DNA of 64,000 bases. It comes from an uncultured Dehalococcoidales bacterium (GTDB lineage: Bacteria > Chloroflexota > Dehalococcoidia > Dehalococcoidales > BS750m-G39). The notes beneath the pieces were generated by a model that was given only the letters and a program-made list of their open reading frames with translations, ran no database searches and was not told where the DNA came from. The stretch lies in NCBI GenBank assembly GCA_964505425.1, contig CAZDHX010000005.1:3726-67725 (forward strand), given 5' to 3'. Positions 13,894-40,214 of this stretch are shown piece by piece (position 1 is the first letter of the stretch; every line of letters starts with the position of its first letter). Both the position numbers and the translations under genes were made by a program.

Positions 13894-15006
13894 ATGAAGC
13901 TCTCATGTCTTCAGGAGAACCTGAATCGAGGACTTGGTGTGGTGGGGAAGGCGGTGGCTACCCGAACCACCCTTCCCATAACCAATAACGTCCTCTTAGC
14001 TACTGAAAAGTCCCGCCTGAAGTTAGTTGCCACCAATCTTGAGATGGCTATCAGCTGCTGGATTGGGGCCAAGGTGGAGGAGGAGGGGGCAATCACCGTT
14101 CCCGCCCGCCTTCTAACCGAGTTTGTCAGCTCCCTCCCCAGCGAGAAGGTTGACATCGCCCTTTCCCCTCAGACCAAGACCCTGGGGCTGAAGTGTGCCC
14201 GCTTTGAGGCGCGAATCAGCGGCATTGATGCCAAGGACTTTCCACCGATACCCAAGGTGGCTGATGGTATCACTACCAAGGTTGAGGTAGAGGAACTGCG
14301 TCAGGGGATTACTCGGGTCGCCTTTGCCGCTGCCACTGAGGAGTCCCGCCCCGTGCTCACCGGCGTTGACGCCAAGTTTGAGGGTGATTCATTGACGCTG
14401 GCGGCGGCTGATGGCTTTAGGTTAGCCGTCTATAAGCTACCCCTTGCCTCCCCGGTCAGTAAAGAGACCGAGGCTATTATTCCCGCCCGCGCCCTCTCTG
14501 AGCTAAGTCGGCTTATAGCGGACGAGGAGGCGGTGGAGATAACGGTGAACCCGAGTAAGGGTCAGGCTCTATTTCGCCTGAAGAATATTGAGCTGGTTTC
14601 CCAGCTGGTTCAGGGCACCTTCCCCAATTATGCTCAGCTTATCCCCCAGGGCTACACCACCCGAGCCGTGGTCAGTGTCGGTGATTTCCTGAGGGCGACC
14701 AAGACCGCCTCCATATTTGCCCGCGACGGCAGCGGTATCGTCCGCCTGATGATAGCCCCGGGCAAGCTGGTAGTTTCCGCCCGCTCGGAGGAGATTGGCG
14801 ATGATGTTGGCGAGATTGATGCCGAGGTTGAGGGGGAGGAGGCGAAGATTGCCTTCAACGGCAAGTACCTCACCGATGTCCTGGGCGTCCTTGGTGAAGC
14901 CCAGGTAGCCCTGGAGGCTACCAACCCGTCAAGCCCTGGCGTTGTCCGCCCGGTGGGGGTGGATAACTATATCCACGTCGTCATGCCCATGTTTGTGCAG
15001 TGGTAG
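13894..15006 (+). CDS. dnaN: DNA polymerase III beta sliding clamp
   Basis: 370 aa with MKLSCLQENLNRGL, NVLL, PVLTGV, FNGKYL and VVMPM, typical of DnaN. The last 26 nt overlap the convergent serine recombinase ORF. Confidence 0.9.
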   Translation: MKLSCLQENLNRGLGVVGKAVATRTTLPITNNVLLATEKSRLKLVATNLEMAISCWIGAKVEEEGAITVPARLLTEFVSSLPSEKVDIALSPQTKTLGLKCARFEARISGIDAKDFPPIPKVADGITTKVEVEELRQGITRVAFAAATEESRPVLTGVDAKFEGDSLTLAAADGFRLAVYKLPLASPVSKETEAIIPARALSELSRLIADEEAVEITVNPSKGQALFRLKNIELVSQLVQGTFPNYAQLIPQGYTTRAVVSVGDFLRATKTASIFARDGSGIVRLMIAPGKLVVSARSEEIGDDVGEIDAEVEGEEAKIAFNGKYLTDVLGVLGEAQVALEATNPSSPGVVRPVGVDNYIHVVMPMFVQW

Positions 15007-16462
15007 GTAATTCTAGGGGAATCACGCCTTGAATCTCTACTCTCTCAGTGCTGGCATAAACTTTGATGTCTAGCGCATCCAGAGCCAGCTTTATAATCTC
15101 CGGCGTGCTATCTTGTAGGTTCTTCAATACTCGGTCATAAAGCTGACCTAACCTAATTTTGGCCTCCGCAAGGTTCGCAATATTGTCCCTAGTATTGAGA
15201 AAGTCATTCAGTTTGGCTTCATCTTCATGGCGCAGGCGTTTGAGATTATTCAAGCGGTCTAAGACTTCGTCCTTTCCAAACTCTCCCAACTCTAGAGCTT
15301 GAAGTAAATTGGTTCGACGTTGCTCATAGTTCCGCAAGTTCTTTTCTAGTTCCTTAATCTCAGCCTCTATTGCATCCAAGTTTCCAATGTCGCTTGCTTC
15401 GGCAAGTTGACTCAGTATGATTTCAGGGTTCGCTAATACCGTTTTAGTCTTACTCCAGACTATTTCTTCAAGTTCTCCAGCTCGTACGTACCGGGCTTGG
15501 CATTTCTTACTGGTATTCTCATGGGGTCTGGCACTACTGCACTGGTAATAACGGTATTTTTTATTCAGACAGTGTCCAACAAGTGGCTTTCCGCAAATCG
15601 CACAGTAGGCATGACCTGTAAGCAGGTATTCATGTTTTGGCCGTCCCATTCTTACCCTCGGCCTATTGAGCTGTTCATTGGCGGCTTGGAATATATCTTC
15701 GCTTACTATAGCTGGGGTCACGTTCGGCAATAGGGTATTCTTGAAGTAGGTATTACCGATATAGCCGGAATTGCGGACAATTCGCCTGATAGTGAGGCTA
15801 TGCCATAATTTACGCTTGCTTTCATCGTTTTTGGTGGCTTTGGTGTGCACTCCGCTCTGGTTCAGTCTACGTGCTATTGATACCAAGCTTTCCCCGATTG
15901 CTACCCGGTTGAAAATCTCTCGTACTATAACGGCTTCAACCTGGTTTACCTCACGCCTTTTTGTCTCTTTATTCCAGTCATAACCGTACATGCCGACACC
16001 GGTACCCTGGGGCATTATGCCGCCATTCAGCTTTGCACGTTTCCCTCGCATGGTGCGTTCTCGTATTTTTTCCGCTTCCAGCTTTGAGGCAAAGCCCCGA
16101 ATGTAACTAATCAACTTGCCAAGCTCTGAACTATCTACCGTCTCAGTAACAGCCTCAAGTCTGACGCTGTGCTTTTCAAGTTCCTGAGTAAGTATGACGC
16201 CGTGAGTAGGGTCACGTGATAGCCGATCCAAGCAGTAAACCACTACAATGTCAATATCCCCGATTCGTATCAATTCCCGTAGCTCGTTTAGCTTGGGACG
16301 TTCAAGTGTTAGCCCTGAGTATGCCTCAGAAAAGCGGTAGGCTACGTTATAGCCCTTATCTTGGCAATATGCAAGGCAAGCCTCAAGCTGTGTGTGTAGA
16401 CTAGTTCCTTCCTGTTCTTGGTCTTCGGTGCTTACTCTACAATAGGTAGCTGCGGTTTTCAT
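14981..16462 (-). CDS. Large serine recombinase
   Basis: YCRVSTEDQ catalytic-Ser motif, a resolvase N-domain, a recombinase domain, a Zn-ribbon (CAICGKPLVGH...YYQC) and a C-terminal coiled coil. The start is taken at ATG 16462 (ATGA overlap with the upstream small ORF, GGGGG SD) rather than the track start 16483. Confidence 0.9.
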   Translation of the reverse strand: MKTAATYCRVSTEDQEQEGTSLHTQLEACLAYCQDKGYNVAYRFSEAYSGLTLERPKLNELRELIRIGDIDIVVVYCLDRLSRDPTHGVILTQELEKHSVRLEAVTETVDSSELGKLISYIRGFASKLEAEKIRERTMRGKRAKLNGGIMPQGTGVGMYGYDWNKETKRREVNQVEAVIVREIFNRVAIGESLVSIARRLNQSGVHTKATKNDESKRKLWHSLTIRRIVRNSGYIGNTYFKNTLLPNVTPAIVSEDIFQAANEQLNRPRVRMGRPKHEYLLTGHAYCAICGKPLVGHCLNKKYRYYQCSSARPHENTSKKCQARYVRAGELEEIVWSKTKTVLANPEIILSQLAEASDIGNLDAIEAEIKELEKNLRNYEQRRTNLLQALELGEFGKDEVLDRLNNLKRLRHEDEAKLNDFLNTRDNIANLAEAKIRLGQLYDRVLKNLQDSTPEIIKLALDALDIKVYASTERVEIQGVIPLELPTTAQTWA

Positions 16463-16608
16463 TTCTTCTTTACCCCCTTCCACTTTGGCTTATTCCAGTA
16501 GGGAGACCGGCACTTAGGACAGGTCTTAGGTTCTTTTGGCTGGCGCGGTACCCAAATATGCCCGCAACGTAGGCATTTAAGTATCGGCAGTTCAAAGCTC
16601 TTGTTCAT
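16459..16608 (-). CDS. Small zinc-ribbon protein, translationally coupled to the recombinase
   Basis: MNKSFELPILKCLRCGHIWVPRQPKEPKTCPKCRSPYWNKP has two CxxC pairs. Its stop overlaps the recombinase ATG. The track start at 16644 is probably too far upstream because it overlaps the promoter. Confidence 0.55.
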   Translation of the reverse strand: MNKSFELPILKCLRCGHIWVPRQPKEPKTCPKCRSPYWNKPKWKGVKKK

Positions 16609-17869: not shown

Positions 17870-17898
17870 TTGACAACCTTTCCACTTTGTGGTATTGT
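17870..17898 (+). promoter_or_regulatory. Putative promoter of the Rrf2-led sulfur supercluster
   Basis: TTGACA (17870-17875), 17-nt spacer, TATTGT (17893-17898) preceded by TGG (extended -10-like). Confidence 0.45.
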
Positions 17899-17940: not shown

Positions 17941-18384
17941 ATGAAGCTTTCAACTAGAGGGCGTTACGGAACCAGAGCACTCCTGGACCTAGCTCTCCAT
18001 CAGGGGGAGGAACCGGTACTGTTAAAAGACATTGCCGGCAGGGAGCAGATTTCAGTACGTTATCTAGACCATCTGATCACCCCCCTTATAGCTGGAGGCA
18101 TAGTGCGGACTACCCGAGGCGCCAGAGGTGGGGTTTCGCTGGCTAAATCTCCTAAGGAGATAAAGCTGAGCGAAATCGTGCGACTTCTTGAAGGTTCCAT
18201 TGCCCCTGTGGAGTGTGTTAGCAGTCCGGGAATATGCAGTCGCTCTAAATTATGCGTCACCCGCGATATATGGAGTGAACTGAAGCAGGCAATGGATGGG
18301 ATTTTGGAGTCCACCACCCTGCAGGACTTGGTGGAACGGCACAAGAGAAAAGAGCAGCCCGAAGAGACTATCTACCACATCTAA
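17941..18384 (+). CDS. Rrf2-family transcriptional regulator (IscR/CymR-like, three-Cys cluster ligands)
   Basis: MKLSTRGRYGTRALLDLA wHTH start and the Cys triad ECVSSPGICSRSKLC. Confidence 0.9.
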   Translation: MKLSTRGRYGTRALLDLALHQGEEPVLLKDIAGREQISVRYLDHLITPLIAGGIVRTTRGARGGVSLAKSPKEIKLSEIVRLLEGSIAPVECVSSPGICSRSKLCVTRDIWSELKQAMDGILESTTLQDLVERHKRKEQPEETIYHI

Positions 18385-18434: not shown

Positions 18435-19445
18435 ATGGTTGACAGGTATTCCAGACAGGTTCTTTTCCCAGGCATAGGTGAAGAAGGGCAGAGGAAACTG
18501 GGCAGCAGCAGTGTGGTGCTTATTGGCTGTGGAGCCCTGGGGACTGTCATTGCCACATCGTTGGTGCGTGCTGGCGTGGGCAGGATTAAGGTCATAGACA
18601 GGGATTTTATTGAGTACCACAACCTGCAGCGGCAGGTCCTCTTTGATGAAGAGGATGTAAAGGCTCAACTGCCCAAGGCGATAGCCGCCGAGCGCCATCT
18701 AAAGAAGGTCAACTCTTCAATTGAAATTGAAGGGATAGTGACCGATGTGAACCATACGAATATTGAACGGCTTGTCGCCGGTGCCGATGTAATCCTGGAC
18801 GGGCTGGACAACTTTGAGACCCGCCTCCTTATAAACGATGTTTCCCTGAAGCATAAGATTCCGTGGGTATATGGCGGAGCCATAGCGGCATCGGGGATGA
18901 CCATGAACATAATTCCGGGGCAAACGCCTTGCTTGCGGTGTTTTCATCCTGAAGTACCCCGTGAAGCGAGGATTCGCACCTGTGAAACGGCGGGGGTAAT
19001 CAATCCTGCCCCTTTTATTGTTGGCTCTCTGCAGTCTGCTGAGGCAATGAAGATATTAATCGGCGCTGAGGAAGTCAATCGGGACCTGATAATAATAGAT
19101 GTTTGGAAGGGCAAATTCAGCCGCCTGAAGGTTGGCTTTCGTGCCGATTGTCCAGCCTGTGGGGGCGAATATGAGGCTCTGGAGGGAAAGTTTGGCACGA
19201 GAACCACCTCACTTTGCGGGCAAAATGCGGTTCAGGTCATAAATCCCGACGTAAAGGAGGTCTCCTTTGAGAGGCTGGCGAAACAACTCAGGCTGATAGG
19301 CAAAGCCAGTTACAACGAGTTCATGCTACAAGCCAACGTTGACGGTCATGAAATGTTCTTTTTTCCTGACGGACGGGCAATTATTAAGAACACCACTGAT
19401 GAGTCATTAGCACGAGGGCTTTACGCCAAATACATCGGTGTTTAA
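18435..19445 (+). CDS. ThiF/MoeB/HesA-family E1-like adenylyltransferase with a ~90-aa C-terminal domain and no rhodanese domain
   Basis: RYSRQVLFPGIGEEGQRKL, VLIGCGALGT (nucleotide loop), two CxxC pairs (CLRC, CPAC) and RTCETAGV. The start is taken at ATG 18435 (AAGAGGAGAGAG SD) instead of track 18387. Confidence 0.85.
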   Translation: MVDRYSRQVLFPGIGEEGQRKLGSSSVVLIGCGALGTVIATSLVRAGVGRIKVIDRDFIEYHNLQRQVLFDEEDVKAQLPKAIAAERHLKKVNSSIEIEGIVTDVNHTNIERLVAGADVILDGLDNFETRLLINDVSLKHKIPWVYGGAIAASGMTMNIIPGQTPCLRCFHPEVPREARIRTCETAGVINPAPFIVGSLQSAEAMKILIGAEEVNRDLIIIDVWKGKFSRLKVGFRADCPACGGEYEALEGKFGTRTTSLCGQNAVQVINPDVKEVSFERLAKQLRLIGKASYNEFMLQANVDGHEMFFFPDGRAIIKNTTDESLARGLYAKYIGV

Positions 19446-19454
19446 GGTGGTTTT

Positions 19455-20624
19455 ATGATTTACTTAGATAATGCAGCCACATCGTGGCCCAAGCCAGAAA
19501 GCGTCTACCAGACCATGGATGAGTTCCTGAGAACGAAGGCGGGCAATCCCGGTCGTGGTAGCCATAGCATGGCAACGGCTGCCAGCGGAACAGTTGAAGA
19601 GACAAGGCTGCTCCTGGCACGGCTGATTAACGCCCCGGACAAAGAGCGGGTTATATTTACCTTCAACTGCACCGATTCGCTGAACATAGGACTCAAGGGA
19701 CTGCTCAAGCCCGGTGACCACGTCATCACCAGCAGCATTGAGCATAATTCTGTGGTTCGTCCCTTGAGGAAACTTGAACAGCAGGGGGTCAAACTAACAT
19801 GGCTTTCCCCTCATGCGGGGGATGGATTTGTCTCTCCCCAAGATGTGGAAAAGGCGATAATCAGGAAAACAAGGCTGGTGGTGATGACCCATGCTTCCAA
19901 CGTGAGCGGGGTCATGCAGCCAATTGATGAATATGGGGCAATCGCCAGGCGGCATAACCTGGTTTTCATGGTAGACGCTGCCCAGACCGCCGGCAAGTAC
20001 CCTCTTGATGTCCAGGCAAATCATATTGACCTGCTTGCCTTTTCCGGGCATAAAGGCTTGTTCGGTCCGCCGGGTACGGGGGTGCTCTATATTGGAGAGC
20101 GTGTTAACCTTGATTCGCTGCGCGAGGGCGGCACCGGCTCACACTCGGAACGGGAAGAACAGCCACTTGACCTGCCCTATAGATATGAGGCCGGGACACT
20201 AAATAGCGTCGGCATCGCTGGGCTGGGTGCCGGGCTGAAGTTTATTTTTAAAGAAGGAATGGGAAAAATCTTAGCACATGAGAAATCCCTGACCGATAGG
20301 CTAACCGAAGGTTTATCACCTATCCCGGGAGTAACTCTTTATACGGCTAAGGATAGCTCCAAGCAAGCACCTGTCATCTCCCTTAACATCAACGGCTATG
20401 AGCCAGGGGAGGTGGGAACCATCCTTGACCAGGCGTTTGACATCAAGGTAAGGACGGGGCTTCACTGCGCCCCGGCAGCCCATAAGACGCTGGGTAGCTA
20501 TCCCTTGGGCACTGTCCGCCTAAGTCCGGGATATTTTAATACTGCCGAGGAGATTGAGGTAACGCTTCAGGCACTAGACAGGATCGCGAGGACGGCGGCT
20601 ACTAAAGCCGCTGTCCTTCACTAA
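19455..20624 (+). CDS. Class V aminotransferase, cysteine desulfurase / selenocysteine lyase family (short-N-terminus subgroup)
   Basis: IYLDNAATSWPKP N-terminus, SGHKGLFGPPGTG (PLP-Lys region) and RTGLHCAP. From memory it resembles the EF2568-type subfamily; an HMM search is needed to confirm. Confidence 0.85.
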   Translation: MIYLDNAATSWPKPESVYQTMDEFLRTKAGNPGRGSHSMATAASGTVEETRLLLARLINAPDKERVIFTFNCTDSLNIGLKGLLKPGDHVITSSIEHNSVVRPLRKLEQQGVKLTWLSPHAGDGFVSPQDVEKAIIRKTRLVVMTHASNVSGVMQPIDEYGAIARRHNLVFMVDAAQTAGKYPLDVQANHIDLLAFSGHKGLFGPPGTGVLYIGERVNLDSLREGGTGSHSEREEQPLDLPYRYEAGTLNSVGIAGLGAGLKFIFKEGMGKILAHEKSLTDRLTEGLSPIPGVTLYTAKDSSKQAPVISLNINGYEPGEVGTILDQAFDIKVRTGLHCAPAAHKTLGSYPLGTVRLSPGYFNTAEEIEVTLQALDRIARTAATKAAVLH

Positions 20625-20636
20625 AGGAGAATCGGA

Positions 20637-21098
20637 ATGGCGAAGACAAATATGCTCTGCCCGTTTAGTAATAGGTTATGCAGTGAGTGCCCCCTCTACA
20701 GAGGCAGGCATTACTACCTCAGTTTGTGCCAGCAATACCGGGGTCACATTGGCAAGTCACAGGAGAAAACTAAAGCTGGTGCTGACCACAATTCGGTTGA
20801 CTTCCAGGCTATGTGGAAGATGGTGCAGCCGTGGGCTGGAGCTGCCCCCCAGCCGGAGGCTGAGACCAAGATTAAGCTGAGGCTCATAGATGTGGAAGAT
20901 GAAACAAGCAGATTTTTTGACCTTGAGGAAGCCAAGGCTTGGGACTGGAGCGACCCAACGATTATGAGAGTAATCGGTGACCTGCAAGTCACCAGCTGGG
21001 ATAATCTGGTTGAGATCGTACGCTTCAAAGCCAAGAAAGGCCATCGGCAGCTAGATGTTTACGAAGCCCCCCGTTTCATGCTGCTGGGAGGAGGATAA
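20637..21098 (+). CDS. Cys-rich protein with a C-terminal domain ending LLGGG-stop; candidate atypical ThiS/MoaD/CysO-like sulfur carrier
   Basis: 153-aa track ORF in tight operon context. The N-terminus is [12 protein letters not shown]...C (4 Cys). The C-terminal ~75 aa ([11 protein letters not shown]...[16 protein letters not shown]) ends in a free Gly-Gly-Gly. The function is inference only. Confidence 0.55.
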
Positions 21099-21105
21099 AT
21101 TCAAG

Positions 21106-22104
21106 ATGGTCAAGAGCCAAAAAGTAGACACCCTTCAATACAAGACGATAGAGATACCCAAGTTAACCAGGGGCATAGCCAGGGACTCTGCTGAGCTCAT
21201 CGGGAATACACCTTTGGTCAGACTGAACCGAATAACCAGGGGCGCAAGGGCAGAGGTGGTCGCCAAGCTTGAGTCCTTTAATCCCGTAGGCAGTGTGAAG
21301 GACAGGATTGGGGTCGCCATGATTGTGGAGGCTGAAGAAAGGGGACTTATTAAAAAAGATACGGTTATCGTCGAGCCCACCAGTGGCAACACCGGTATTG
21401 CCCTTGCCTTCGTCTGCGCCGCCCGGGGGTATCAGCTTATTCTCACCATGCCCGATACCATGTCCCTGGAGCGCCGGCAACTCCTCTCCATCTTGGGCGC
21501 TGAGCTGGTACTTACCCCCGGGGCAGAGGGGATGTCAGGGGCAGTAAGAAAGGCGGAACAGCTAGTTGCGGAAAACCCTGGATACTTTATGCCCCAACAG
21601 TTCAAGAACCCGTCAAATCCAGAGATACACCGGCTGACCACCGCCGAGGAGATATGGAGGGATACTGACGGCAGGGTGGATATTCTGGTTGCTGGCATAG
21701 GCACTGGTGGAACGATTACCGGAGTTGCTGAGGTAATAAAGTCTCGGAAGCCCGAATTTAAGGCTATCGCTGTTGAGCCGGTTGATTCTCCGGTGCTTTC
21801 CGGGGGGAAACCGGGCTCGCACAAGATTCAGGGCATCGGGGCGGGTTTTATTCCCGATGTCCTGATAACTGACCTGATTGACGAAATTATCAAGGTCACT
21901 AATGAGGATGCCGGCATAATGGCAAGAAGATTAGCCAAGGAAGAAGGAATCCTGGCGGGCATATCCTCGGGGGCAGCCACCTGGGCAGCCCTGGAGGTGG
22001 CTAAAAGACAGAAAAATAAAGGCAAGCTTATCGTGGTAGTCCTGCCTGACACCGGCGAGCGCTATCTTTCTACCTGGCTATTTCAGGAACAAAAACAGGA
22101 TTAA
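21106..22104 (+). CDS. cysK: Cysteine synthase (O-acetylserine sulfhydrylase, CysK/CysM family)
   Basis: [17 protein letters not shown] (PLP-Lys), TSGNTG and GIGAGFIP motifs. The start is taken at ATG 21106, using the GGAGGAGG that also encodes the upstream GGG tail. Confidence 0.9.
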
Positions 22105-22125
22105 ATAAAAGGGAGAGGTACTATC

Positions 22126-22839
22126 TTGTTTAAGACCTTAAAAGAGGACATTCAAGCAATATTTGCCAAGGATCCGGCGGCGAGGAACTCGCTGGAGGTC
22201 ATCTTCTGCTATCCTGGATTGCACGCCCTCTGGCTTCACCGCCTGGCTCACTATCTCTGGCGGCACAAGCTCCGCTTTCTGGCTCGCTTCCTCTCCCATG
22301 TCAGCCGCTTTCTAACCGCCATTGAAATCCACCCCGGAGCCAAAATTGGCAAGCGCTTCTTTATTGACCACGGCGCTGGGGTGGTCATTGGGGAGACGGC
22401 AGAGGTAGGCGATGACGTACTGCTCTATCAAGGGGTGGTTCTGGGTGGAACCAGCCTAAAGAAAGAAAAGCGTCACCCCACGGTGGGTAATAGTGTGGTA
22501 ATTGGAACCGGGGCGGTAGCCCTGGGTGCCATCACCATAGGTGAGGGAGCCAGAATTGGCTCCGGCTCGGTGGTGGTAAAGTCAGTGCCGCCAGGGGCTA
22601 CGGTGGTGGGAATACCGGGGAGGATAGTGGAGGATAAGAAGCCCCTCATGGACTTAGAGCACGGCAAATTACCCGACCCGGTGGCAGAGGCGATAAGGCT
22701 GGTCTTAAAGGAGCAGGATAGGTTAGAGGAGCGATTGAGGAAGCTTGAGAGCTTGGGCGGGGTAGCGGTCTCTAAGGATGAGTTGGCGGAGATGAAGAAG
22801 GAAATCGAGCGCGAATTCAGCCAGGGCGAGGGAATATAA
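22126..22839 (+). CDS. cysE: Serine O-acetyltransferase
   Basis: [28 protein letters not shown] and [13 protein letters not shown] hexapeptide repeats, with a C-terminal coiled-coil extension. Confidence 0.9.
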
Positions 22840-23664
22840 ATGCCGAGGAAGCTATCTGAGCTTACAGTGTTAATCAGGGGTGGCGGAGAGGTAGCCAGCG
22901 CCATAGCTCACCGGTTACACCGCAGCCATTTCCGGGTTTGCCTCACGGAGATAGCCAACCCCCTGGCCGTCAGCCGCAGCACTAGCTTCTCGGAGGCGGT
23001 TTTTGGCGGGGTAAAGACCATTGAAGGAGTGACAGCCGAGCTTGCTCTCGCCTCGCCAGAGGAAATCTACCGGCTCTGGGGGCAAGGAAAGATACCCGTA
23101 GTAATAGACCCTCAGGCATCAGCGAAGGAGGGGTTACAGCCCGATGTGCTGGTTGATGCCATCATGGCCAAACGAAATACCGGCACCAGGATTACTGATG
23201 CCCCACTGGTAATTGGCATGGGGCCCGGCTTTCACGCTGGCAGGGATGTGCATATCGTAGTAGAGACCAACCACAGCAATAACCTGGGCAAGGTGATACT
23301 TAAAGGAGAGGCTGAGAAGAATACGGGAACCCCGGTAGCCATAGGCAGACTTACTAGGGAGAGGGTGGTCTGGGCACCCAAGGCAGGCGTCTTTACCACA
23401 GATAGGGAGATTGGCGACTCGGTAACTGCTAAGGGGGTTGTGGGGCAGGTTGGGAACCTAAGGCTGCAGGCGCCGATAGGCGGCATACTGCGCGGGCTAC
23501 TAAGGAGCGGGGTAAAGGTATCCAAGGGTACCAAGCTTATTGAGGTTGACCCGGTAAATGATAAGGCTGTCTGCTATGCCATCAGGGACAAGATGAGAGT
23601 TATAGCTTGGGGAGCTCTTGAAGCCATAATACTGAAATTCAAAGTAGGGGAAAAGGAATGTTAG
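22840..23664 (+). CDS. YqeB/EF2563-like protein (family linked to selenium-dependent molybdenum hydroxylase maturation)
   Basis: VLIRGGGEVASAIAHRLHRSHFRV Rossmann-like start followed by PLAVSRSTSFSEAVFGG. The match to the EF2563/YqeB C-domain family is from memory and needs HMM confirmation. Confidence 0.55.
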   Translation: MPRKLSELTVLIRGGGEVASAIAHRLHRSHFRVCLTEIANPLAVSRSTSFSEAVFGGVKTIEGVTAELALASPEEIYRLWGQGKIPVVIDPQASAKEGLQPDVLVDAIMAKRNTGTRITDAPLVIGMGPGFHAGRDVHIVVETNHSNNLGKVILKGEAEKNTGTPVAIGRLTRERVVWAPKAGVFTTDREIGDSVTAKGVVGQVGNLRLQAPIGGILRGLLRSGVKVSKGTKLIEVDPVNDKAVCYAIRDKMRVIAWGALEAIILKFKVGEKEC

Positions 23665-24446
23665 AGATTTATCAGGAGTTAGCCAATATAACTTCAAAAG
23701 GGGAGCAGGCAGTATTAGCCACGGTCATCTCCAGTCGCGGCTCTGCGCCGAGGAAAGCGGGGGCAAAGATGCTCATTAGGAGAGACGGCAGTTTTATCGG
23801 CACCGTAGGCGGCGGGGGCGTTGAACAGCAGGTGAGGGGAAAAGCTAGTGAGGTAATGGATTCAGGTGAGCCGCAAATAGTGCACCTTGACCTTTCTGGC
23901 TCTGGGGAAAATGCAGCCATGATTTGCGGCGGGCAGATGGACGTCTTCCTGGAGCCAATCCTGCCCCCGGAAACACTTTATCTCTTTGGCGCGGGGCATA
24001 TCTCCCAGAGCACAGCCGCCATGGGCAAGATGTTGGGGTTCCGGGTGGTAGTTATAGACCCGCGCCCCGAATATAACAACATTGACCGATTCCCTGATGC
24101 CGATTCACTGGTAGTTGAAGAATATGATAACGCCTTTTCTAAATTGGAAGTGGACGGAAACGGTTACATCGTCATCTATACCACAGGGCATATCCTTGAC
24201 GAACAATGCCTGCGGTTTGCTGTTGACACCAAAGCAAAGTATATCGGGATGATTGGCAGCAAAAAGAAGGTTATGGAAGTTAAGGAGCGCTTAGTGCAAA
24301 AGGGGGTGTCCCAACAGCAGTTGGACAGGGTCAATGCCCCAATAGGAATAAAAATCGGTGCTGAGACCCCGGAAGAGATTGCTATAAGCATCCTTGCCGA
24401 GATAATCAAGGCTAAGAGAATTGGAGGGAAGAGCTATGCAGTTTGA
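23658..24446 (+). CDS. XdhC/CoxI-family molybdenum cofactor insertion/sulfuration accessory protein
   Basis: ATVISSRGSAPRKAGAKMLI...GTVGGG (XdhC N-domain) and LYLFGAGHIS...VVVIDPRPE (Rossmann C-domain). Overlaps the previous gene by 7 nt. Confidence 0.8.
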   Translation: MLEIYQELANITSKGEQAVLATVISSRGSAPRKAGAKMLIRRDGSFIGTVGGGGVEQQVRGKASEVMDSGEPQIVHLDLSGSGENAAMICGGQMDVFLEPILPPETLYLFGAGHISQSTAAMGKMLGFRVVVIDPRPEYNNIDRFPDADSLVVEEYDNAFSKLEVDGNGYIVIYTTGHILDEQCLRFAVDTKAKYIGMIGSKKKVMEVKERLVQKGVSQQQLDRVNAPIGIKIGAETPEEIAISILAEIIKAKRIGGKSYAV

Positions 24447-25578
24447 GACCATAGCTATTCACGCCGGAGAGAGACCGGATAGAGCCTTTGGCGCTATATC
24501 AGTACCTATCTATCAGACGTCAACTTTTGTCTTTGAGGATGTGGGTAAGACGAAGGGCTATGATTACTCACGTACGGCAAACCCAACACGGAAGGTTCTG
24601 GAGGATACAATTGCCCAGCTTGAAGGCGGGAAGGCGGGGTTTGCCTTTGCCACCGGGATAGCTGCTGAGACCACGGTTATGCACCTGCTTAAGGCTGGAG
24701 ACCACGTAATATCAGGAGATGATGTTTACGGGGGAACCTACCGGCTATTTCAGAATGTAATGTGTGACTTTGGGCTGGAGTTTACCTTTTTAAGAATGGG
24801 TAGCAGAGAGACGATTGAGCAGGCGATAAAGCCCAATACCAGAATGTTATGGCTGGAGACACCGTCCAATCCATTGCTAAACATCGTTGATATTGAGATG
24901 GCGGTTGATGTGGCTAAGAAGCATAAATTGCTGACAGTAATAGATAATACCTTCGCCACCCCTTATTTCTTAAGACCAATTGAGTATGGAGTCGACCTTG
25001 TTGTCCATTCCACAACTAAGTACCTAAATGGGCACTGTGATGTGGTTGGTGGAGCTGTAGTAACCACTACTGACGAGCTAACTGAGAGGATTCAGTTTCT
25101 GCTCAATGCTATGGGGACTTGTGCCTCCCCATTTGATTGCTGGCTGGTGCTTCGGGGAATTGAGACCCTCCCGGTGCGGATGAGGCAGCATGAAGAAAAT
25201 GCCATTGCAGTGGCGAACTATCTTAGCCAAGATCCTGCGGTAAAAAAGGTATTCTATCCTGGGCTTAAGTCTCACCCCGGCCATGAAATCGCTAGGAGGC
25301 AGATGAAGGGATTTGGCGGAATGGTCTCACTTGAACTAAACGGCGGGATTGAAGCGGTTAACGGCTTTCTAAAAAGGATTAAGGTCTTTCCCCTAGCAGA
25401 GTCGCTGGGGGGAGTTGCTTCACTTGTTGAACACCCAGCAACAATGAGCCATGCCTCAATGCCCGAGAACTACAGAAAAAAGGTGGGAATTACTGACCAA
25501 TTAATCCGGTTATCAGTCGGTTTAGAGAATATTGACGATTTGATTGAAGATTTACGTCAGGCGCTTGAGCCTGGCTGA
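24436..25578 (+). CDS. Cys/Met-metabolism PLP enzyme (cystathionine gamma-synthase / gamma-lyase / O-acylhomoserine sulfhydrylase family)
   Basis: FETIAIHAG, YSRTANPT and HSTTKYLNGHCDVVGG (PLP-Lys). The start is taken at ATG 24436 (GGAGGGA SD). Confidence 0.85.
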   Translation: MQFETIAIHAGERPDRAFGAISVPIYQTSTFVFEDVGKTKGYDYSRTANPTRKVLEDTIAQLEGGKAGFAFATGIAAETTVMHLLKAGDHVISGDDVYGGTYRLFQNVMCDFGLEFTFLRMGSRETIEQAIKPNTRMLWLETPSNPLLNIVDIEMAVDVAKKHKLLTVIDNTFATPYFLRPIEYGVDLVVHSTTKYLNGHCDVVGGAVVTTTDELTERIQFLLNAMGTCASPFDCWLVLRGIETLPVRMRQHEENAIAVANYLSQDPAVKKVFYPGLKSHPGHEIARRQMKGFGGMVSLELNGGIEAVNGFLKRIKVFPLAESLGGVASLVEHPATMSHASMPENYRKKVGITDQLIRLSVGLENIDDLIEDLRQALEPG

Positions 25579-25589
25579 AGGAGTGGGAC

Positions 25590-26813
25590 GTGTCTTATGC
25601 CAGAGCGTTACGATGCCGAAAATGCGGGCAGGAATATCCCCTGCAACCCATTAACCTGTGCGATTTCTGTCTCAGCCCGCTTGAGGTCAGCTATGACTAT
25701 AAAGGCATGGCTAAGGTGGTAAGCCGTGAGAAAATTAGCGGTGGTCCTCTAAGCATGTGGCGTTATCGTGATATGCTGCCGGTGGAGGGTAAGGAGATAG
25801 ACATTGGCACCGGCTTTACCCCCCTCATCAGAGCCGACAACCTGGGGCGTGAACTGGGGCTGGACCATCTCTATATCAAAAACGACTGCCTTAATCCAAC
25901 TTACTCCTTCAAGGACAGGGTAGTCTCGGTAGCCATTACCAAGGCACGGGAATTCGGCTTTACTGCCGTAGCCTGTGCCTCAACCGGTAACCTGGCGGCT
26001 AGCGTCGCCGCCCACGCCGCCAAGGCGAATGTGAAAGCCTATGTTTTCGTTCCTGCTGATGTAGAGTCCGGCAAGCTGATAGGGGCGGCAATCTACAAGT
26101 CGGTTCTGATGACTGTTGAGGGGGACTATGATGATGTCAACCGCCTCTGTGCTGAGGTGGCACGAAGATACAAATGGGGATTTATTAACATCAACCTCAG
26201 ACCGTACTACGCCGAGGGGAGCAAGACCCTGGGCTACGAGGTAGCTGAGCAGCTGGGATGGCGTGCCCCTGATTGTGTGGTGGCTCCGGCGGCTTCAGGG
26301 CTTCTCTTCACCCGAATATGGAAGGGGCTGGATGAGCTAGCCATGCTGGGCTTAATTGAGCCGGTTAACACCCATATGTATGTTGCCCAGGCTGCCGGCA
26401 GCTCGCCCATTGTCAATGCCTTTCAGGCGGGCACTCTCCACGTGCACCCGGTGGAGCCAGAGACCATTGCCAAATCCATAGCCATTGGTAACCCGGCTGA
26501 TGGCTATTACGCCTTGATGGTTGCCCGACAGTCGGGTGGTAGCGCCTGCGCTGTAAGTGACGAAGAAGCCATTGCCGGGGTGAAGTTGCTGGCTCAGACC
26601 GAGGGCATCTTTGCCGAAGCCGCCGGCGGGGTGGTGATTGGCGCATTAAGAAAGGTGGTAGCTTCGGGGTTGATTAAGAGGAATGAGCTTACGGTGGCTT
26701 TCATTACCGGAGCCGGACCAAGGACGCAGGAGGTAGTGGCGGACATTGTGCAACCACTTACTGTCCGTCCCACCCTGGAGTCAGTGGAGGAGGTGCTCAA
26801 AGTCCCTGTCTGA
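25590..26813 (+). CDS. Threonine synthase-family PLP enzyme with N-terminal zinc ribbon
   Basis: CRKCGQEY...CDFC ribbon, NPTYSFKDR (PLP-Lys) and ASTGNLA. Sequence alone cannot separate a bona fide ThrC from a sulfur-incorporating paralogue. Confidence 0.8.
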   Translation: MSYARALRCRKCGQEYPLQPINLCDFCLSPLEVSYDYKGMAKVVSREKISGGPLSMWRYRDMLPVEGKEIDIGTGFTPLIRADNLGRELGLDHLYIKNDCLNPTYSFKDRVVSVAITKAREFGFTAVACASTGNLAASVAAHAAKANVKAYVFVPADVESGKLIGAAIYKSVLMTVEGDYDDVNRLCAEVARRYKWGFININLRPYYAEGSKTLGYEVAEQLGWRAPDCVVAPAASGLLFTRIWKGLDELAMLGLIEPVNTHMYVAQAAGSSPIVNAFQAGTLHVHPVEPETIAKSIAIGNPADGYYALMVARQSGGSACAVSDEEAIAGVKLLAQTEGIFAEAAGGVVIGALRKVVASGLIKRNELTVAFITGAGPRTQEVVADIVQPLTVRPTLESVEEVLKVPV

Positions 26814-26839
26814 AATGTAATAACCCAGAGGAGGCTGAA

Positions 26840-27082
26840 ATGGCTAAGAAGCAGGTAATGTTTACCTTTCCCCAGGAGCTAATCCAGGAGCCCGTCATCT
26901 ATAGCCTGGGGCACAAGTTTAAGGTGGTGACTAATATCCGCCGTGCCGACGTCTCGGAGAATAGAGGCTGGGTGGTGCTGGAGCTGGAGGGGGAGGAGAA
27001 GGAGATTGAGCAGGGCATCGCCTGGGTGAGAAGCAAAGGGGTAAGGGTTGACCCGGTTATGGGCGATATTGTGGAGGGATAA
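26840..27082 (+). CDS. Stand-alone NIL-domain protein
   Basis: 80 aa. FPQELIQEPVIYSLGHKFKVVTNIRRADVSENRGWVVLELEG matches the NIL (MetN C-terminal-like) pattern. Confidence 0.7.
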   Translation: MAKKQVMFTFPQELIQEPVIYSLGHKFKVVTNIRRADVSENRGWVVLELEGEEKEIEQGIAWVRSKGVRVDPVMGDIVEG

Positions 27083-27085
27083 ACA

Positions 27086-28252
27086 ATGAAACGGATATAC
27101 CTTGATTATGCGGCCACTACGCCGACCCACCATGAGGTGGTAAAGGCAATGCTTCCCTACTTTAGCGATGTCTTCGGCAACCCTTCAAGCATCCATTCCT
27201 ACGGGCAGGAGGCAAAGGGGGCTATTGAAGAAGCCAGGGCTAGGGTTGCCGACCTCATCGGTGCCCGGGATGGGGAAATCGTCTTCACCAGCGGCGGCAC
27301 CGAGGCGGATAACTTTGCCCTTAAGGGGGTGGCTTTCGCCAACGAGGGCAGGGGCAACCATATAATTACCAGCCCCATTGAGCACCACGCCGTTGTAGAA
27401 ACATGTAAATTTCTGGAGAGACGGGGGTTTAAGATAACCTACCTCCCGGTGGATGGGTATGGCTTGGTTGCCCCTGATGATGTCAGAAAGGCTATCACTG
27501 ATAAGACCATCCTAATTTCGGTGATGCACGCTAGCAATGAAGTCGGCACCATACAGCCAATAGCCGAGATAGGCAAGGTTGCCAGGGAAGCCGGCGTCTA
27601 TTTCCACACTGACGCCGTGCAAACAGCGGGGCACATTCCAGTGGATGTGAACGAGCTTGGGGTGAACCTGCTATCTATGTCAGCCCATAAGTTATACGGT
27701 CCCAAGGGGACGGGGGCGCTGTATATCAGAAAAGGCACCAGGCTAACCCGCTTTATGCATGGCGGTGACCAGGAAAGAAGGCGGCGGGCGGGTACGGAGA
27801 ATACCCCCGCCATTGTGGGCTTTGGCAAAGCGGCGGAAATTGCCCAACAGGAAATGGGGGAAGAAGCAAAACGGCTGACCTATCTTCGTGACAAACTCAT
27901 CAGTGGTCTGTTGGAACGGATTGACCATACCCGCCTAAATGGTCATCCCACAATGAGGCTGCCCAACAATGTTAATATAAGCGTTGATTATGTCGAAGGA
28001 GAATCAATGCTTCTGAATCTAGACCTGGAAGGCATTTGCGCTTCTACCGGCTCTGCCTGCAGCTCATCAAGCCTTGAGCCCTCCCACGTGCTCCTGGCAC
28101 TGGGGCTTTCCCCTGAGCAGGCACACGGTTCGCTCAGGTTTAGTCTGGGTAAGTGGACCACCGAGGAGGAGATAGAGCGAGTTTTAGACATTCTGCCCAG
28201 AGTTGTTACCAAGCTCAGGGCTATGTCACCGCTCTTAAAGAGCCAGAGATAG
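27086..28252 (+). CDS. iscS: Cysteine desulfurase (NifS/IscS type)
   Basis: [25 protein letters not shown] (PLP-Lys) and the active-site loop STGSACSS. Confidence 0.9.
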
Positions 28253-28263
28253 GAGAGGAAAAC

Positions 28264-28665
28264 ATGCGTGACGTTTGGTCGCTATATAGTGAGAAGGTGA
28301 TGGAGCACTTCAGGAACCCGAGGAATGTGGGGGAGATGGGAAACCCTGATGGCATCGGCCATGTGGGAAACCCGGTGTGCGGCGACGTCATGGAGCTTTA
28401 CATCAAGGTGGATGACAGCACCATTACTGACGCCAAGTTCAAGACCTTCGGCTGTGGCGCTGCCATCGCCACCAGCTCCATTCTCACCGAGATGGTAAAA
28501 GGAAAGAGCATAAGTGAGGCGCTGGAAATCTCCAATCGGGCGGTGGCTGAAGCCCTGGACGGGCTGCCCCCGGTTAAGATGCACTGCTCGGTTTTAGCTG
28601 AGGAAGCACTTAAATCAGCCGTTGAGGACTACCTTGCTAAAAGCAAGAGTAAGGAAAGGAGGTAA
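28264..28665 (+). CDS. iscU: Fe-S cluster scaffold (IscU / NifU N-terminal type)
   Basis: [20 protein letters not shown] and [12 protein letters not shown] (three Cys ligands). The start is ATG 28264; the longer track ORF from 28153 overlaps iscS. Confidence 0.9.
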
Positions 28666-29175: not shown

Positions 29176-30240
29176 GTGGAAGTAAACCAAATACCTGAGA
29201 TTGGCAAAATCTCGCCGGCAATCTTCAGCGAGCTGATATTTCCCCGCCTGGGGGCTAAGAGTGAAAAAATCCTGGTCGGGCCGCAGCACGGGGTGGACGT
29301 GGGGATAGTGGAAATCGGGGACAAGGCGGTCTCGTTTACCTGCGACCCGGTGTTTATCGTCCCTGAGTACGGCTGGGAGAGGGCTGCCTGGTTTGCCATT
29401 CATATTCTTGCCTCTGACGCCGTGACCTGCGGGCTTAAGCCCAAGTTTCTGTCCATAGACCTGAACCTGTCCATGGAGATGACCAAGGACGAGCTGCAGA
29501 TAGTCTGGGATACCATGCACCGGGAGTGCGAGCGGCTGGGAATCTCGGTCATCTGCGGGCACACCGCCAGGTACGAGAACTGCCATTACCCCATGGTGGG
29601 CGGGGCTACCATAATCGGGGTTGGGGAGAAAGAGGAATATGTCACCCCCAGAATGGCAGGAGCTGGCGATAGGATAATTATTACCAAGGGGCCGGCTATT
29701 GAGGCGACAGGCATCTTGGCTACCATGTTTCCCCAGCTTATTGAGAAGGAGTTCGGGCTTGACTTTAGCCAGAGGGCACAGCAGATATTCTATAAGATGT
29801 CAGTGGTGGAGGACGCCATGACAGCGGTAGGCGTTGGCATTAGAGACAATGGCGTTACCGCCATGCATGATGCCACCGAGTGCGGGATATGGGGCGGACT
29901 TTATGAACTGGCTCAGTCGGCTGGTCTGGGGGTGAGGATAGAAAAGGAGCAGATTGTAGCTGAGGACTGTGTTGAAGAAATATGCCGCTTTTTTGGCATT
30001 GACCCCTACGCCTCAATAAGCGAAGGGACGCTAATCATTGCCTGCCGTGAGCATAAAGCCAGGGAAGTGGTGGAGGCTTTGTCTCAAAAGGGTATTAAAT
30101 CTTCTATTGTCGGAGAGCTGACTAGACTAGATAAAGGAATGGTTCTAGTAGAAGGAGGAAACGAAAAGAAACTTGAGCACCCTATCGTTGACCCCTTCTG
30201 GAAGGCTTTCTACCATGCCCTTGAGAAATACAAATCATGA
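29176..30240 (+). CDS. PurM-superfamily (AIR synthase-related / HypE-SelD-ThiL-like) ATP-dependent enzyme
   Basis: GVDVGIVEIGDKAVSFTCDP, HILASDAVTCG and VICGHTA, the typical PurM-like N and C domains. It lacks the SelD N-terminal Cys/Sec loop and the HypE C-terminal PRIC. GTG start with an AGGAGGG SD. Confidence 0.7.
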   Translation: MEVNQIPEIGKISPAIFSELIFPRLGAKSEKILVGPQHGVDVGIVEIGDKAVSFTCDPVFIVPEYGWERAAWFAIHILASDAVTCGLKPKFLSIDLNLSMEMTKDELQIVWDTMHRECERLGISVICGHTARYENCHYPMVGGATIIGVGEKEEYVTPRMAGAGDRIIITKGPAIEATGILATMFPQLIEKEFGLDFSQRAQQIFYKMSVVEDAMTAVGVGIRDNGVTAMHDATECGIWGGLYELAQSAGLGVRIEKEQIVAEDCVEEICRFFGIDPYASISEGTLIIACREHKAREVVEALSQKGIKSSIVGELTRLDKGMVLVEGGNEKKLEHPIVDPFWKAFYHALEKYKS

Positions 30241-30279
30241 GAGTAAACGGTGAACTAAATATATGCTCAGAGGAGATAG

Positions 30280-31297: not shown

Positions 31298-31732
31298 ATG
31301 GCGAAAATAATTGCCGTCTGTAAGAGTGAGAAAAAGGGCACTAAAAAGGAAGTTGTGACGGAAGGATTTCTTCGGGAGGACTTTGGTCTTATTGGTGATG
31401 CCCATGCCGATTGCTGCACGCATCGTCAGGTAAGCCTGCTGGCGATTGAGAGTATTAATAAAATGCGAAGTCTAGGCTTCGATATAGGCCCAGGGGATTT
31501 TGCCGAGAATATTACCTGTGAAGGGGTAGAGCTGGTCTCATTGCCGGTGGGGACGCGGCTCTTAATAGGAAAAGAAGTTATCTTAGAGGTTACTCAGATC
31601 GGAAAGGAGTGCCATAGCAGGTGTGCTATCTATCGTCAGATAGGCAAATGCATCATGCCCAGAGAAGGGGTATTCGCCAAGGTAATCGGCGGTGGATTGG
31701 TTAGGGCTGGAAACACGATAAAAATAAAATGA
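31298..31732 (+). CDS. MOSC-domain protein
   Basis: 144 aa. HRQVSLL...GDFAENITCEG...G is typical of the small MOSC beta-barrel family. Confidence 0.75.
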   Translation: MAKIIAVCKSEKKGTKKEVVTEGFLREDFGLIGDAHADCCTHRQVSLLAIESINKMRSLGFDIGPGDFAENITCEGVELVSLPVGTRLLIGKEVILEVTQIGKECHSRCAIYRQIGKCIMPREGVFAKVIGGGLVRAGNTIKIK

Positions 31733-39890: not shown

Positions 39891-40021
39891 ACTCCTGTCA
39901 TACGAATTGTCATCGCAACTTCAAGCCTCTCATTTTAGTATAAGCTTATTATGTGGAAATAAAAAGATCCCGCTGCCGGGCAGAAGCCGCCGAGGAACCC
40001 CGAGGAAGCAGGATTCCAGGC

Positions 40022-40213
40022 ATGAACATGAGCAGCAATCAATTACCTCTTCCTAACAACGATCCGGCGCGGAAGAATGTTGACTATTCTGTTCCGCCAG
40101 AGCCAATATGTGACTCTGACGCCGATGCCGAACTGGCCCAGGCCGATATTGACCACCTGTGTCGGGTCTGGGCCGGGGTGGGACGGGCGATCCTTCTCAG
40201 GAGGAGCAGTTAA
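40022..40213 (+). CDS. Small acidic hypothetical protein directly upstream of the recombinase (possible accessory/directionality factor)
   Basis: Within track ORF 39953..40213, the stop TAA lies immediately 5' of the recombinase ATG (TAAGATG). No family recognised. Confidence 0.3.
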   Translation: MNMSSNQLPLPNNDPARKNVDYSVPPEPICDSDADAELAQADIDHLCRVWAGVGRAILLRRSS

Positions 40214-40214
40214 G

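Follow-up and report, generated by a model that had tools for sequence, protein, structure and literature searches.

Why should a gene for a 153-residue protein that ends in three glycines be packed between the genes of a cysteine desulfurase and a cysteine synthase, directly downstream of an E1-like adenylyltransferase and its desulfurase neighbour? The question is raised by a 64,000-nucleotide stretch of contig CAZDHX010000005.1 (positions 3,726 to 67,725; assembly GCA_964505425.1) from an uncultured Dehalococcoidales bacterium, to which we refer as the window. Ubiquitin signalling has its prokaryotic roots in E1-activated beta-grasp proteins, which also act as sulfur carriers in the synthesis of thiamin, molybdopterin, thio-tRNA, cysteine and methionine, and a free C-terminal Gly-Gly on a beta-grasp domain is the hallmark of E1 substrates. 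An earlier note, made from the sequence of the window, had proposed that the glycine-tailed protein carries sulfur as a thiocarboxylate from the desulfurase to the neighbouring CysK. Our analysis suggests that the 153-residue protein is probably an E1-activated ubiquitin-like carrier. The identification of CysK as the acceptor is more tentative, and the complete statement, an E1-activated carrier with CysK as its favoured, unsettled acceptor, falls a little short of an even chance.

The five genes at the centre of the question share one strand and nearly abut one another, with intergenic gaps of 9, 12, 7 and 21 nucleotides (nt), just as the earlier note had them. Together with the parts of the 153-amino-acid (aa) protein, they are located in the window as follows.

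18435..19445, + strand, ThiF/MoeB-type E1 adenylyltransferase (Pfam ThiF 249 bits, residues 21-256)
19455..20624, + strand, class-V pyridoxal phosphate (PLP) enzyme of the cysteine desulfurase / selenocysteine-lyase family, EF2568/TIGR01977 type (TIGR01977 472.8 bits, cut-off 377)
20637..21098, + strand, two-domain 153-aa protein, stop codon counted in (homologue searches, alignment)
20637..20774, + strand, N-terminal module of that protein, residues 1-46 (32-sequence alignment; stand-alone family in many phyla)
20862..21095, + strand, residues 76-153 of that protein, predicted ubiquitin-like beta-grasp domain at the C-terminus; contains a WDW loop and ends in PRFMLLGGG (AlphaFold2, Foldseek)
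21087..21095, + strand, GGAGGAGGA, codons of the terminal Gly-Gly-Gly and at the same time the cysK ribosome-binding site
21106..22104, + strand, CysK, O-acetylserine sulfhydrylase A type, with an N-terminal extension of ~20 aa (TIGR01139 479.6 bits)
22126..22839, + strand, CysE serine O-acetyltransferase, C-terminus ...GEGI (TIGR01172 246.5 bits)

The 153-aa open reading frame (ORF) is a real conserved gene of a family found mainly in Dehalococcoidia, as is evident from its homologues, the conservation of the terminal Gly-Gly and the synonymous variation of the glycine codons. A word-indexed search returned 133 homologues at E <= 1e-3 from metagenome-assembled genomes of Chloroflexota/Dehalococcoidia, nearly all of them 145-155 aa long and every one annotated as 'hypothetical' and without a Pfam domain, and an exhaustive profile search through 1.8 billion representatives yielded 216 representatives of the family. 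Searches of Pfam (E <= 10), of NCBIfam and, with a hidden Markov model profile, of all PDB sequences gave zero matches for the 153-aa protein, and we found no description of the family in the literature. In an alignment of 32 sequences with identities down to 42% (alignment A1), C8, C15, C18, H25, the YRGRH motif, W102, W104, R111, G135 and F147 are invariant, and the terminus PRFMLL[G/A]GG is nearly so. The protein of the window contains C8, C15, C18 and C31 and ends in ...PRFMLLGGG directly before the stop codon; these are the N-terminal four-Cys segment and the Gly-rich end that had been pointed out before. The alignment and the structural models together point to an N-terminal Cys3-His module, probably metal-binding, followed by a linker and a putative C-terminal ubiquitin-like beta-grasp domain with a free Gly-Gly. 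The family tree places the protein of the window in a clade linked to CysK and E1, and a separate paralogous clade mostly ends in LLAGG.

The earlier note had suggested that the C-terminal ~75 residues be inspected for a beta-grasp fold, and such a fold is indeed predicted. The AlphaFold2 model of the full-length protein was confident for residues 78-150 only. The domain modelled by itself (C-terminal 78 residues, 58-sequence alignment) reached a predicted local distance difference test score (pLDDT) of 89.5 and a predicted TM-score (pTM) of 0.75, and its elements follow each other as strand, strand, short helix, strand, strand, helix, strand and flexible tail. When the domain model was compared with the PDB by Foldseek, the top 50 matches were all beta-grasp structures (PB1, SUMO1, ubiquitin, NEDD8, UBX, FAT10), with query-normalised TM-scores (TMq) up to 0.61 and a best E-value of 5e-3, and the full-length model gave the same beta-grasp picture. 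Although these scores are modest, the predictions agree on the fold class, which suggests that the C-terminal domain is a beta-grasp.

The free Gly-Gly end is close to absolute in the family. Among the 161 family proteins with the C-terminal domain, 147 terminate exactly in GG, and the exceptions are mostly truncated proteins, together with four that end in ...GC. In alignment A3, which comprises 41 diverse C-terminal domains, G77 and G78 never vary. In the window the glycine codons are GGA GGA GGA and double as the Shine-Dalgarno sequence of cysK, and the earlier note had allowed that the tail might be a by-product of that constraint. We could rule this out because the terminal glycine codons differ synonymously between loci (GGT GGC, GGC GGG, GGT GGT GGT etc.) and because the GG persists where the next gene lies on the other strand or is absent (L003, L004, L014, L017 and L019 of the surveyed loci). 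As a separate observation, P0158, P0189, P0219 and P0159 (locus L091) have the termini ...FYMGC, ...FYMTC or ...HGGC, with a Cys encoded where a carrier-Cys adduct would hold one; neither E1 nor CysK is visible on the short contigs of these Cys-ending members.

The C-terminal domain also exists on its own, in proteins of 73-97 aa with an initial Met and a GG end (P0161, P0171, P0173, P0246, P0247 and others), several of them on contigs too short for context. The two halves of the 153-aa protein are separate adjacent genes in L094, and a stand-alone domain of 77 aa directly follows an E1 gene in L088. Other stand-alone domains adjoin XdhC (L090) and a CO_deh_flav_C subunit (L089). The only other GG-ending ORFs of at least 40 aa in the 64 kb encode MoaA, a Memo-like protein and two short unconserved products; among the GG-ending ORFs of the window, the 153-aa protein is the sole one with a predicted ubiquitin-like domain.

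The E1 bears the features expected of a partner for such a tail. Its start was set to ATG 18435 by homology with the L001 homologue, the ORF list offering TTG 18387. The motifs GCGALG, CLRC, RTCETAGV and CPAC are present and the features of a ThiF domain were all found; the ATP loop, the two CxxC pairs, the conserved Cys, the lack of a rhodanese domain and the desulfurase gene directly next to it had been read correctly by the earlier note. ThiF is the only Pfam match, and the MoeZ model reaches 138 bits against a cut-off of 647. With NF009123 ('MoeB/ThiF family') the E1 scores 368 bits over its full length, under the cut-off of 510, and its best PDB match is E. coli ThiF (1zud), followed by MoeB. 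Its C-terminal ~90 aa (residues ~262-336, 19200-19445) have no Pfam or PDB sequence match, and every one of the 33 E1s from the family loci has retained them. These E1s are all ~335 aa long and constitute one co-evolving subfamily, in which those encoded directly 5' of the GG protein form a clade of their own (at least 12 loci, with no ThiS gene between). Three loci (L100, L101 and L109) have an additional E1 paralogue (E1') that groups with the E1 of L012; their gene order is Rrf2-E1-desulfurase-E1'-GG protein.

The desulfurase, which scores 355 bits with the SclA model (cut-off 525), is not found in the minimal operons described below. In L001 (7228-7762) and also in L015, it is reduced to an N-terminal remnant of 63-68 aa, followed by an 89-aa ThiS-family gene (...WVGG) and then by the GG-protein gene, and in L012 an intact desulfurase and a ThiS gene are both present.

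To survey the gene neighbourhood, reference proteins were mapped onto 19 genome loci and 80 metagenome loci. Neighbours within 3.5 kb were counted in 23 loci, free of redundancy and each flanked on either side by 2.5 kb or more of sequence:

CysK, 19/23 loci
Rrf2, 19/23 loci
E1, 14/23 loci
EF2568-type desulfurase, 9/23 loci
XdhC, 8/23 loci
YqeB, 6/23 loci

The GG family hence co-occurs with ThiF-like E1 and CysK genes, as the earlier note had anticipated. CysK lies directly 3' of the family gene in 28 of the 63 loci with enough downstream sequence, and E1, desulfurase, ThiS, JAB or Rrf2 lies directly 5' in 42 of 61. The gene order of L103 is identical to that of the window, and a minimal unit, Rrf2-E1-GG protein-CysK, recurs in L007-L010 and L095-L098. 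A Prok-JAB (JAMM) peptidase gene is located directly 5' of the family gene in L003, L119, L120, L127 and L133, preceded by the gene for a Cys/Met PLP enzyme; the best NCBIfam match of this JAB neighbour is desampylase, at 71 bits and under the cut-off. The reading of the 153-aa protein as an E1-activated ubiquitin-like carrier is well supported because the beta-grasp prediction, the conserved free GG, the E1, the JAMM peptidase and the stand-alone domains all agree with it.

How could the carrier work? We infer adenylation, thiocarboxylate formation, sulfur source and acceptor as follows. The adjacent ThiF-type E1 would adenylate the terminal Gly153, and sulfide, or a persulfide on the EF2568-type desulfurase, would turn the adenylate into a C-terminal thiocarboxylate; these sources are proposed because the E1 has no rhodanese domain. 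CysK, translated right behind the carrier, would then use the protein-bound sulfide on O-acetylserine provided by CysE. For the clade of the window we favour CysK as the acceptor because it is the tightest and commonest neighbour, in the minimal operons too, and because the sub-clade with JAB and PLP enzyme mirrors HcyS/HcyD/MetY.

By analogy, the logic of the system appears nearest to those of CysO/CysM/MoeZ/Mec and HcyS/HcyF/HcyD/MetY. Like the CysO system of Mycobacterium tuberculosis, which includes CysM, MoeZ and Mec+, the present family has a small GG-ending protein of predicted beta-grasp fold encoded beside a PLP cysteine synthase, a linked E1 of ThiF/MoeB type and, in one sub-clade, a JAMM peptidase, and the proposed chemistry would run alike from adenylation through a thiocarboxylate to attack on the aminoacrylate. 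Unlike CysO, the carrier falls outside PF02597, is twice the size and has an additional N-terminal Cys3-His module. The present synthase is CysK1-type and comes with CysE, which makes O-acetylserine, whereas CysM is specific for O-phosphoserine; MoeZ has a fused rhodanese domain, whereas the present E1 has none, carries an extra C-terminal domain of ~90 aa and has a desulfurase encoded next to it; and no Mec-like hydrolase is encoded in the window. HcyS/HcyF/HcyD/MetY of Wolinella succinogenes and MetO/MetM/Mec/MoeZ of Streptomyces share with it the combination of sulfur carrier, E1, JAMM and PLP sulfhydrylase. The order MetY-HcyD-HcyS is mirrored by Cys/Met PLP enzyme-JAB-GG protein in the five JAB-containing loci. 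In contrast to the present family, which ends directly in GG, those carriers belong to the ThiS/MoaD family and often have residues past the GG that are trimmed. Iyer et al. 2006 (PMC1779556) had already listed operons in which ThiS/MoaD, E1 and JAB are combined with cysteine synthase.

The pathway from desulfurase through a thiocarboxylate to CysK, as drawn in the earlier note, stands only in part. The predicted fold, the GG and the linkage with E1 and CysK favour it, and the following points weigh against it. The CysK of the window is an ordinary CysK1-type enzyme with CysE adjacent: it scores 480 bits with the cysK model TIGR01139 versus 298 bits with the cysM model, and its best PDB match is CysK1 of M. 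tuberculosis (2q3b, 469 bits), with no CysM-named entry among the 60 matches listed. The TIGR01139 score and the match to CysK1 rule out a CysM-type enzyme. This type-A CysK and its neighbour CysE already make up a complete sulfide route of the ordinary kind. Moreover, a flow of sulfur from a cysteine desulfurase via the carrier into cysteine would be circular, with zero net synthesis. By analogy with CysO, a thiocarboxylate that attacks the aminoacrylate of CysK would be expected to give a carrier-Cys adduct, the cleavage of which requires a JAMM hydrolase of Mec type, and no JAMM/Mec hydrolase was detected in the window (tblastn, E <= 1) or in most loci. A NifS gene takes the place of CysK 3' of the family gene in L016 and L126. 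In L011 (7460-9915) and L109, a trio of ATP-binding cassette (ABC) transporter genes is inserted between the GG gene and CysK.

The carrier domain itself also has features that fit the pathway less well. By sequence no homology to ThiS, MoaD or ubiquitin was found, Pfam (PF02597 included) giving no match, and the predicted helix order, with a long helix after strand 4, is nearest to PB1 and not to ThiS/MoaD. Comparison of the domain profile by hhalign with the 29-member ThiS-family clade of the sister operons gave a probability of 36.8%, the alignment covering just the final strand and the GG tail, and no similarity was found to ubiquitin and E. coli MoaD, for both of which approximate query sequences were used. 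The closest sister operons (L012, L001/L015, L110, L114 and L122) hold an 89-aa PF02597 ThiS-family gene with a GG end between the desulfurase and the GG-protein gene. The earlier observation that no ThiS/MoaD-sized ORF is present therefore holds for the window, in which neither tblastn at E <= 1 nor the GG-ending ORFs revealed ThiS, MoaD or JAB elsewhere, and fails for the sister operons. Finally, a paralogous clade of the full two-domain protein, with the GG kept, lies directly 5' of molybdenum (Mo)-hydroxylase operons in at least 14 loci.

The CysKs linked to the GG family share a peculiarity, a conserved N-terminal extension of ~20 aa (21106-21170 in the window). Where the ABC-transporter trio is inserted, in L011 and L109, the extension survives as a remnant of four codons and is missing from CysK itself.

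The earlier note had confined the unit to 18435-22839. The five genes are as described; the limits are not, as the unit is larger and extends co-directionally from an Rrf2 gene (17941) to at least 32753. After CysE, the order on the single strand is YqeB, XdhC-family protein, Cys/Met PLP enzyme, ThrC-like enzyme, NIL protein, NifS, NifU, PurM-superfamily protein, ArsP-type permease, MOSC protein and substrate-binding protein. The further features are:

17870..17898, + strand, best sigma-70-like promoter match, TTGACA-17-TATTGT with extended TG, 5' of the Rrf2 gene (a consensus match alone, function not implied)
17941..18384, + strand, IscR/CymR-like regulator of the Rrf2 family, with the cluster-binding motif CX7CX5C; its gene opens the cluster (Pfam Rrf2 128.6 bits; NCBIfam CymR 125 and IscR 110 bits, both under cut-off)
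22840..23664, + strand, YqeB-family accessory protein of selenium-dependent Mo hydroxylases (TIGR03309 288 bits, cut-off 220)
23658..24446, + strand, XdhC-family Mo-cofactor insertion/sulfuration chaperone (Pfam XdhC_CoxI and XdhC_C; NF045664 307.5 bits, under the cut-off of 350)
24436..25578, + strand, Cys/Met-metabolism PLP enzyme of cystathionine gamma-synthase/lyase type (Pfam Cys_Met_Meta_PP 530 bits; start by homology to L001)
25590..26813, + strand, threonine-synthase-like PLP enzyme with an N-terminal Cys-rich ribbon (NF006050 309 bits, cut-off 303)
26840..27082, + strand, 80-aa NIL-domain protein, C-terminus ...IVEG (Pfam NIL 53 bits)
27086..28252, + strand, NifS/IscS-type cysteine desulfurase (SSGSACSS motif; 36% identity to the upstream desulfurase; L007 orthologue Aminotran_5)
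28264..28665, + strand, NifU/IscU-type Fe-S scaffold (L007 orthologue NifU_N; mapped by tblastn across loci)
29176..30240, + strand, PurM-superfamily protein (under every NCBIfam cut-off: HypE 94, ThiL 66, SelD 48 bits)
31298..31732, + strand, MOSC-domain protein, family of the Mo-cofactor sulfurase C-terminal domain (Pfam MOSC 33 bits; NF011069, C-terminal half, 195 bits, under cut-off)

The carrier unit would then belong to a long sulfur-mobilisation operon under the Rrf2 regulator. The cluster-binding motif of this regulator is ECVSSPGICSRSKLC, and the CymR model scores slightly above the IscR model. The CX7CX5C motif suggests a cluster-binding sensor of IscR type rather than of CymR type. 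The ThrC-like enzyme may be a homocysteine synthase of MetM type (for the MetM pathway, see bioRxiv 10.1101/2024.10.14.618325), which would be a further likeness to the MetO/MetM system. Its gene and that of the 80-aa NIL protein (25590-27082) also occur as a pair in L001/L015 and L103. The NIL protein was ruled out as a carrier, as it ends in ...VEG and not in GG. The PurM-superfamily gene was likewise considered as SelD and rejected, with 48 bits against a cut-off of 125; a PurM-like gene again follows NifS-NifU in L012 and L136. The ArsP-type permease gene after it (the two together span 29176-31281) encodes an inserted YHS/TRASH metal-binding domain.

The most serious alternative is prompted by the YqeB, XdhC and MOSC genes of this operon and by the Mo-hydroxylase contexts of the family, which make the Mo cofactor a possible acceptor. 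[quoted passage not shown] We consider this unlikely, though not so much so as to be set aside lightly. The argument for it starts from the N-terminal module. C8, C15, C18 and H25 are invariant there, the motif YRGRHYYL is present, the AlphaFold2 confidence is low, and the module is presumed to be a metal-binding knuckle. By itself it forms a widespread family of 75-100 aa in Aminicenantes, Anaerolineae, Bacteroidota, Syntrophorhabdaceae and others (loci L020-L087), and four such proteins had no Pfam or NCBIfam match. By neighbour clustering, 35 of the 52 loci, drawn from several phyla, show the module-only gene at the head of a Mo-hydroxylase operon of the xanthine-oxidase family. The genes 3' of it encode a flavin adenine dinucleotide (FAD) subunit (FAD_binding_5/CO_deh_flav_C), a [2Fe-2S] subunit (Fer2_2) and a Mo subunit (Ald_Xan_dh_C/MoCoBD_1/2), often followed by a CoxG-like protein.

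The same reading is further favoured by the GG-ending paralogous clade 5' of such operons, to which many apparently 'isolated' full-length GG proteins belong, and by the stand-alone C-terminal domains next to XdhC and CO_deh_flav_C. The window operon contains YqeB, XdhC, the TIGR01977 desulfurase and MOSC, NifS-MOSC-FdhD strings are common in sister operons, and XdhC and YqeB are present in 8 and 6 of the 23 counted loci. YqeB, XdhC and the TIGR01977 enzyme are part of the accessory set that Haft and Self tied to selenium-dependent Mo hydroxylases (PMC2276186). Delivery to the Mo cofactor would also avoid the futile cycle of the CysK model. Such a mechanism would be new, as the term 'thiocarboxylate' appears nowhere in a 2026 review of Mo-cofactor sulfuration (PMC13653126).

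The known Mo-cofactor sulfuration systems (NifS4 with XdhC in Rhodobacter, IscS with FdhD, eukaryotic ABA3 with its NifS-like and MOSC parts) and the YqeB/YqeC/SelD/SclA set resemble the present loci in that the window operon encodes XdhC, YqeB, a TIGR01977 desulfurase and MOSC, and sister operons encode FdhD, and in that the paralogous clade and the N-terminal module alone head xanthine-oxidase-family operons. They differ in having neither an E1 nor a ubiquitin-like carrier; SelD, YqeC and the structural genes of a Mo hydroxylase are absent from the window. We know of no precedent for ubiquitin-like carriers in a xanthine-oxidase-family context.

Against delivery to the Mo cofactor speaks the clade of the window protein, from which the Mo-hydroxylase linkage is absent and in which CysK is the tightest and commonest neighbour, also in minimal operons that lack both XdhC and YqeB. 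No E1 was seen in the flanks of the Mo-hydroxylase-linked clade. The 64 kb contain neither a Mo hydroxylase nor SelD, and sulfuration of the Mo cofactor as known requires just a desulfurase with XdhC, FdhD or MOSC. A broader version would make the family as a whole the carrier of a hitherto unknown E1-dependent maturation of xanthine-oxidase-family Mo enzymes: the domain, thio- or selenocarboxylated with sulfur or selenium from the EF2568-type lyase, would hand its chalcogen to the Mo cofactor as the terminal sulfido or selenido ligand while the N-terminal module docks onto XdhC, YqeB or the apo-enzyme. This extended form seems rather improbable to us. Equally doubtful are its corollaries that CysK and CysE supply (seleno)cysteine instead of receiving sulfur, and that the module-only proteins are a stripped-down docking component.

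A second alternative deprives the 153-aa protein of the carrier role. The E1 would chiefly serve a canonical ThiS/MoaD carrier, encoded next to it in sister operons and elsewhere in this genome, and the 153-aa protein would be an accessory metal-binding protein or chaperone in sulfur/metallocofactor assembly that keeps its GG, for instance, for docking to a partner. The 89-aa PF02597 genes of the sister operons are what commends this idea; because of them the E1 may serve two carriers, or mainly the ThiS-like one. No E1 lies nearby in 9 of the 23 loci, and the N-terminal module occurs without a ubiquitin-like domain or E1. In Dehalococcoidales, the module-only gene instead lies after NifU_N, Nitro_FeMo-Co and NUBPL-type genes. 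With the known pairs ThiS-ThiF and MoaD-MoeB the present loci share an E1, its best solved relatives being ThiF and then MoeB, and a GG tail and a beta-grasp fold (here predicted). They differ in having no ThiG, ThiH or MoaE gene, in showing no clear sequence similarity between the carriers, and in predicted helices nearer to those of PB1, SUMO and ubiquitin. Against an accessory role, an E1 of a separate clade in at least 12 loci is followed by the GG ORF with no ThiS gene. A JAMM gene lies directly 5' in five loci, a stand-alone C-terminal domain adjoins an E1 (L088), the window has no ThiS-like gene, and a near-absolute free GG on a predicted beta-grasp is what marks E1 substrates. An accessory role seems improbable, more so than delivery to the Mo cofactor.

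Least probable of all is a role as a protein modifier of SAMP/TtuB/Urm1 type, activated by the E1 for isopeptide conjugation, e.g. to CysK or cofactor-assembly proteins, and removed by the JAMM peptidase: the predicted fold is nearest to PB1, SUMO and ubiquitin rather than ThiS/MoaD and the top NCBIfam match of the JAB neighbour is desampylase, but E2- or E3-like, proteasome and Cdc48 genes were not seen in any locus, all recurrent neighbours are sulfur-metabolism or metallocofactor enzymes, and conjugation and sulfur carriage are not mutually exclusive, SAMPs, TtuB and Urm1 being both sulfur carriers and modifiers. SAMP1-3/UbaA of Haloferax, TtuB/TtuC of Thermus and Urm1/Uba4 do share a GG-ending beta-grasp, a non-canonical E1 and a JAMM deconjugase with the present loci; they differ in that there is no sequence similarity, in that tRNA-thiolation partners are missing here, and in that the present family is bacterial (Chloroflexota) with an extra N-terminal Cys-rich module.

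The remainder of the window contains housekeeping genes, two serine recombinase genes and one restriction-modification gene; genes for SelD, MoaD/MoaE, JAMM or a Mo hydroxylase are absent from all 64 kb. An RNase H domain is fused to MoaC at 12944-13837 (Pfam RNase_H residues 3-107, MoaC 154-289), directly after MoaA (11957-12940). A large serine recombinase gene (14981-16483, - strand) runs into the 3' end of dnaN; after it, at 16-18 kb and just 5' of the Rrf2 operon, comes a stretch of small ORFs with a low GC content (0.46). The second serine recombinase gene adjoins the Eco57I-type restriction-modification gene (36291-41786). Both recombinase regions may be integrated mobile elements.

The 153-aa proteins probably represent a protein sulfur carrier of a new kind. 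They would add to the ubiquitin-like proteins a family unseen by sequence searches of Pfam, NCBIfam and the PDB, in which a presumed metal-binding knuckle is fused to a predicted ubiquitin-like domain, together with an E1 subfamily that has no rhodanese domain and carries an extra C-terminal domain of ~90 aa. The contexts are also new, namely an ordinary CysK and xanthine-oxidase-family Mo enzymes. Should CysK be the acceptor, strict anaerobes and enzymes of CysK type would come within the range of thiocarboxylate-dependent cysteine synthesis. Should the sulfur go to the Mo cofactor, the carrier would reveal a novel way of putting in place the sulfido ligand, which is essential for catalysis, or the labile selenium ligand; to our knowledge, the biosynthesis of the labile selenium ligand of selenium-dependent hydroxylases is unresolved. 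The N-terminal module alone defines a widespread uncharacterised family of small proteins that marks Mo-hydroxylase operons in many anaerobic phyla.

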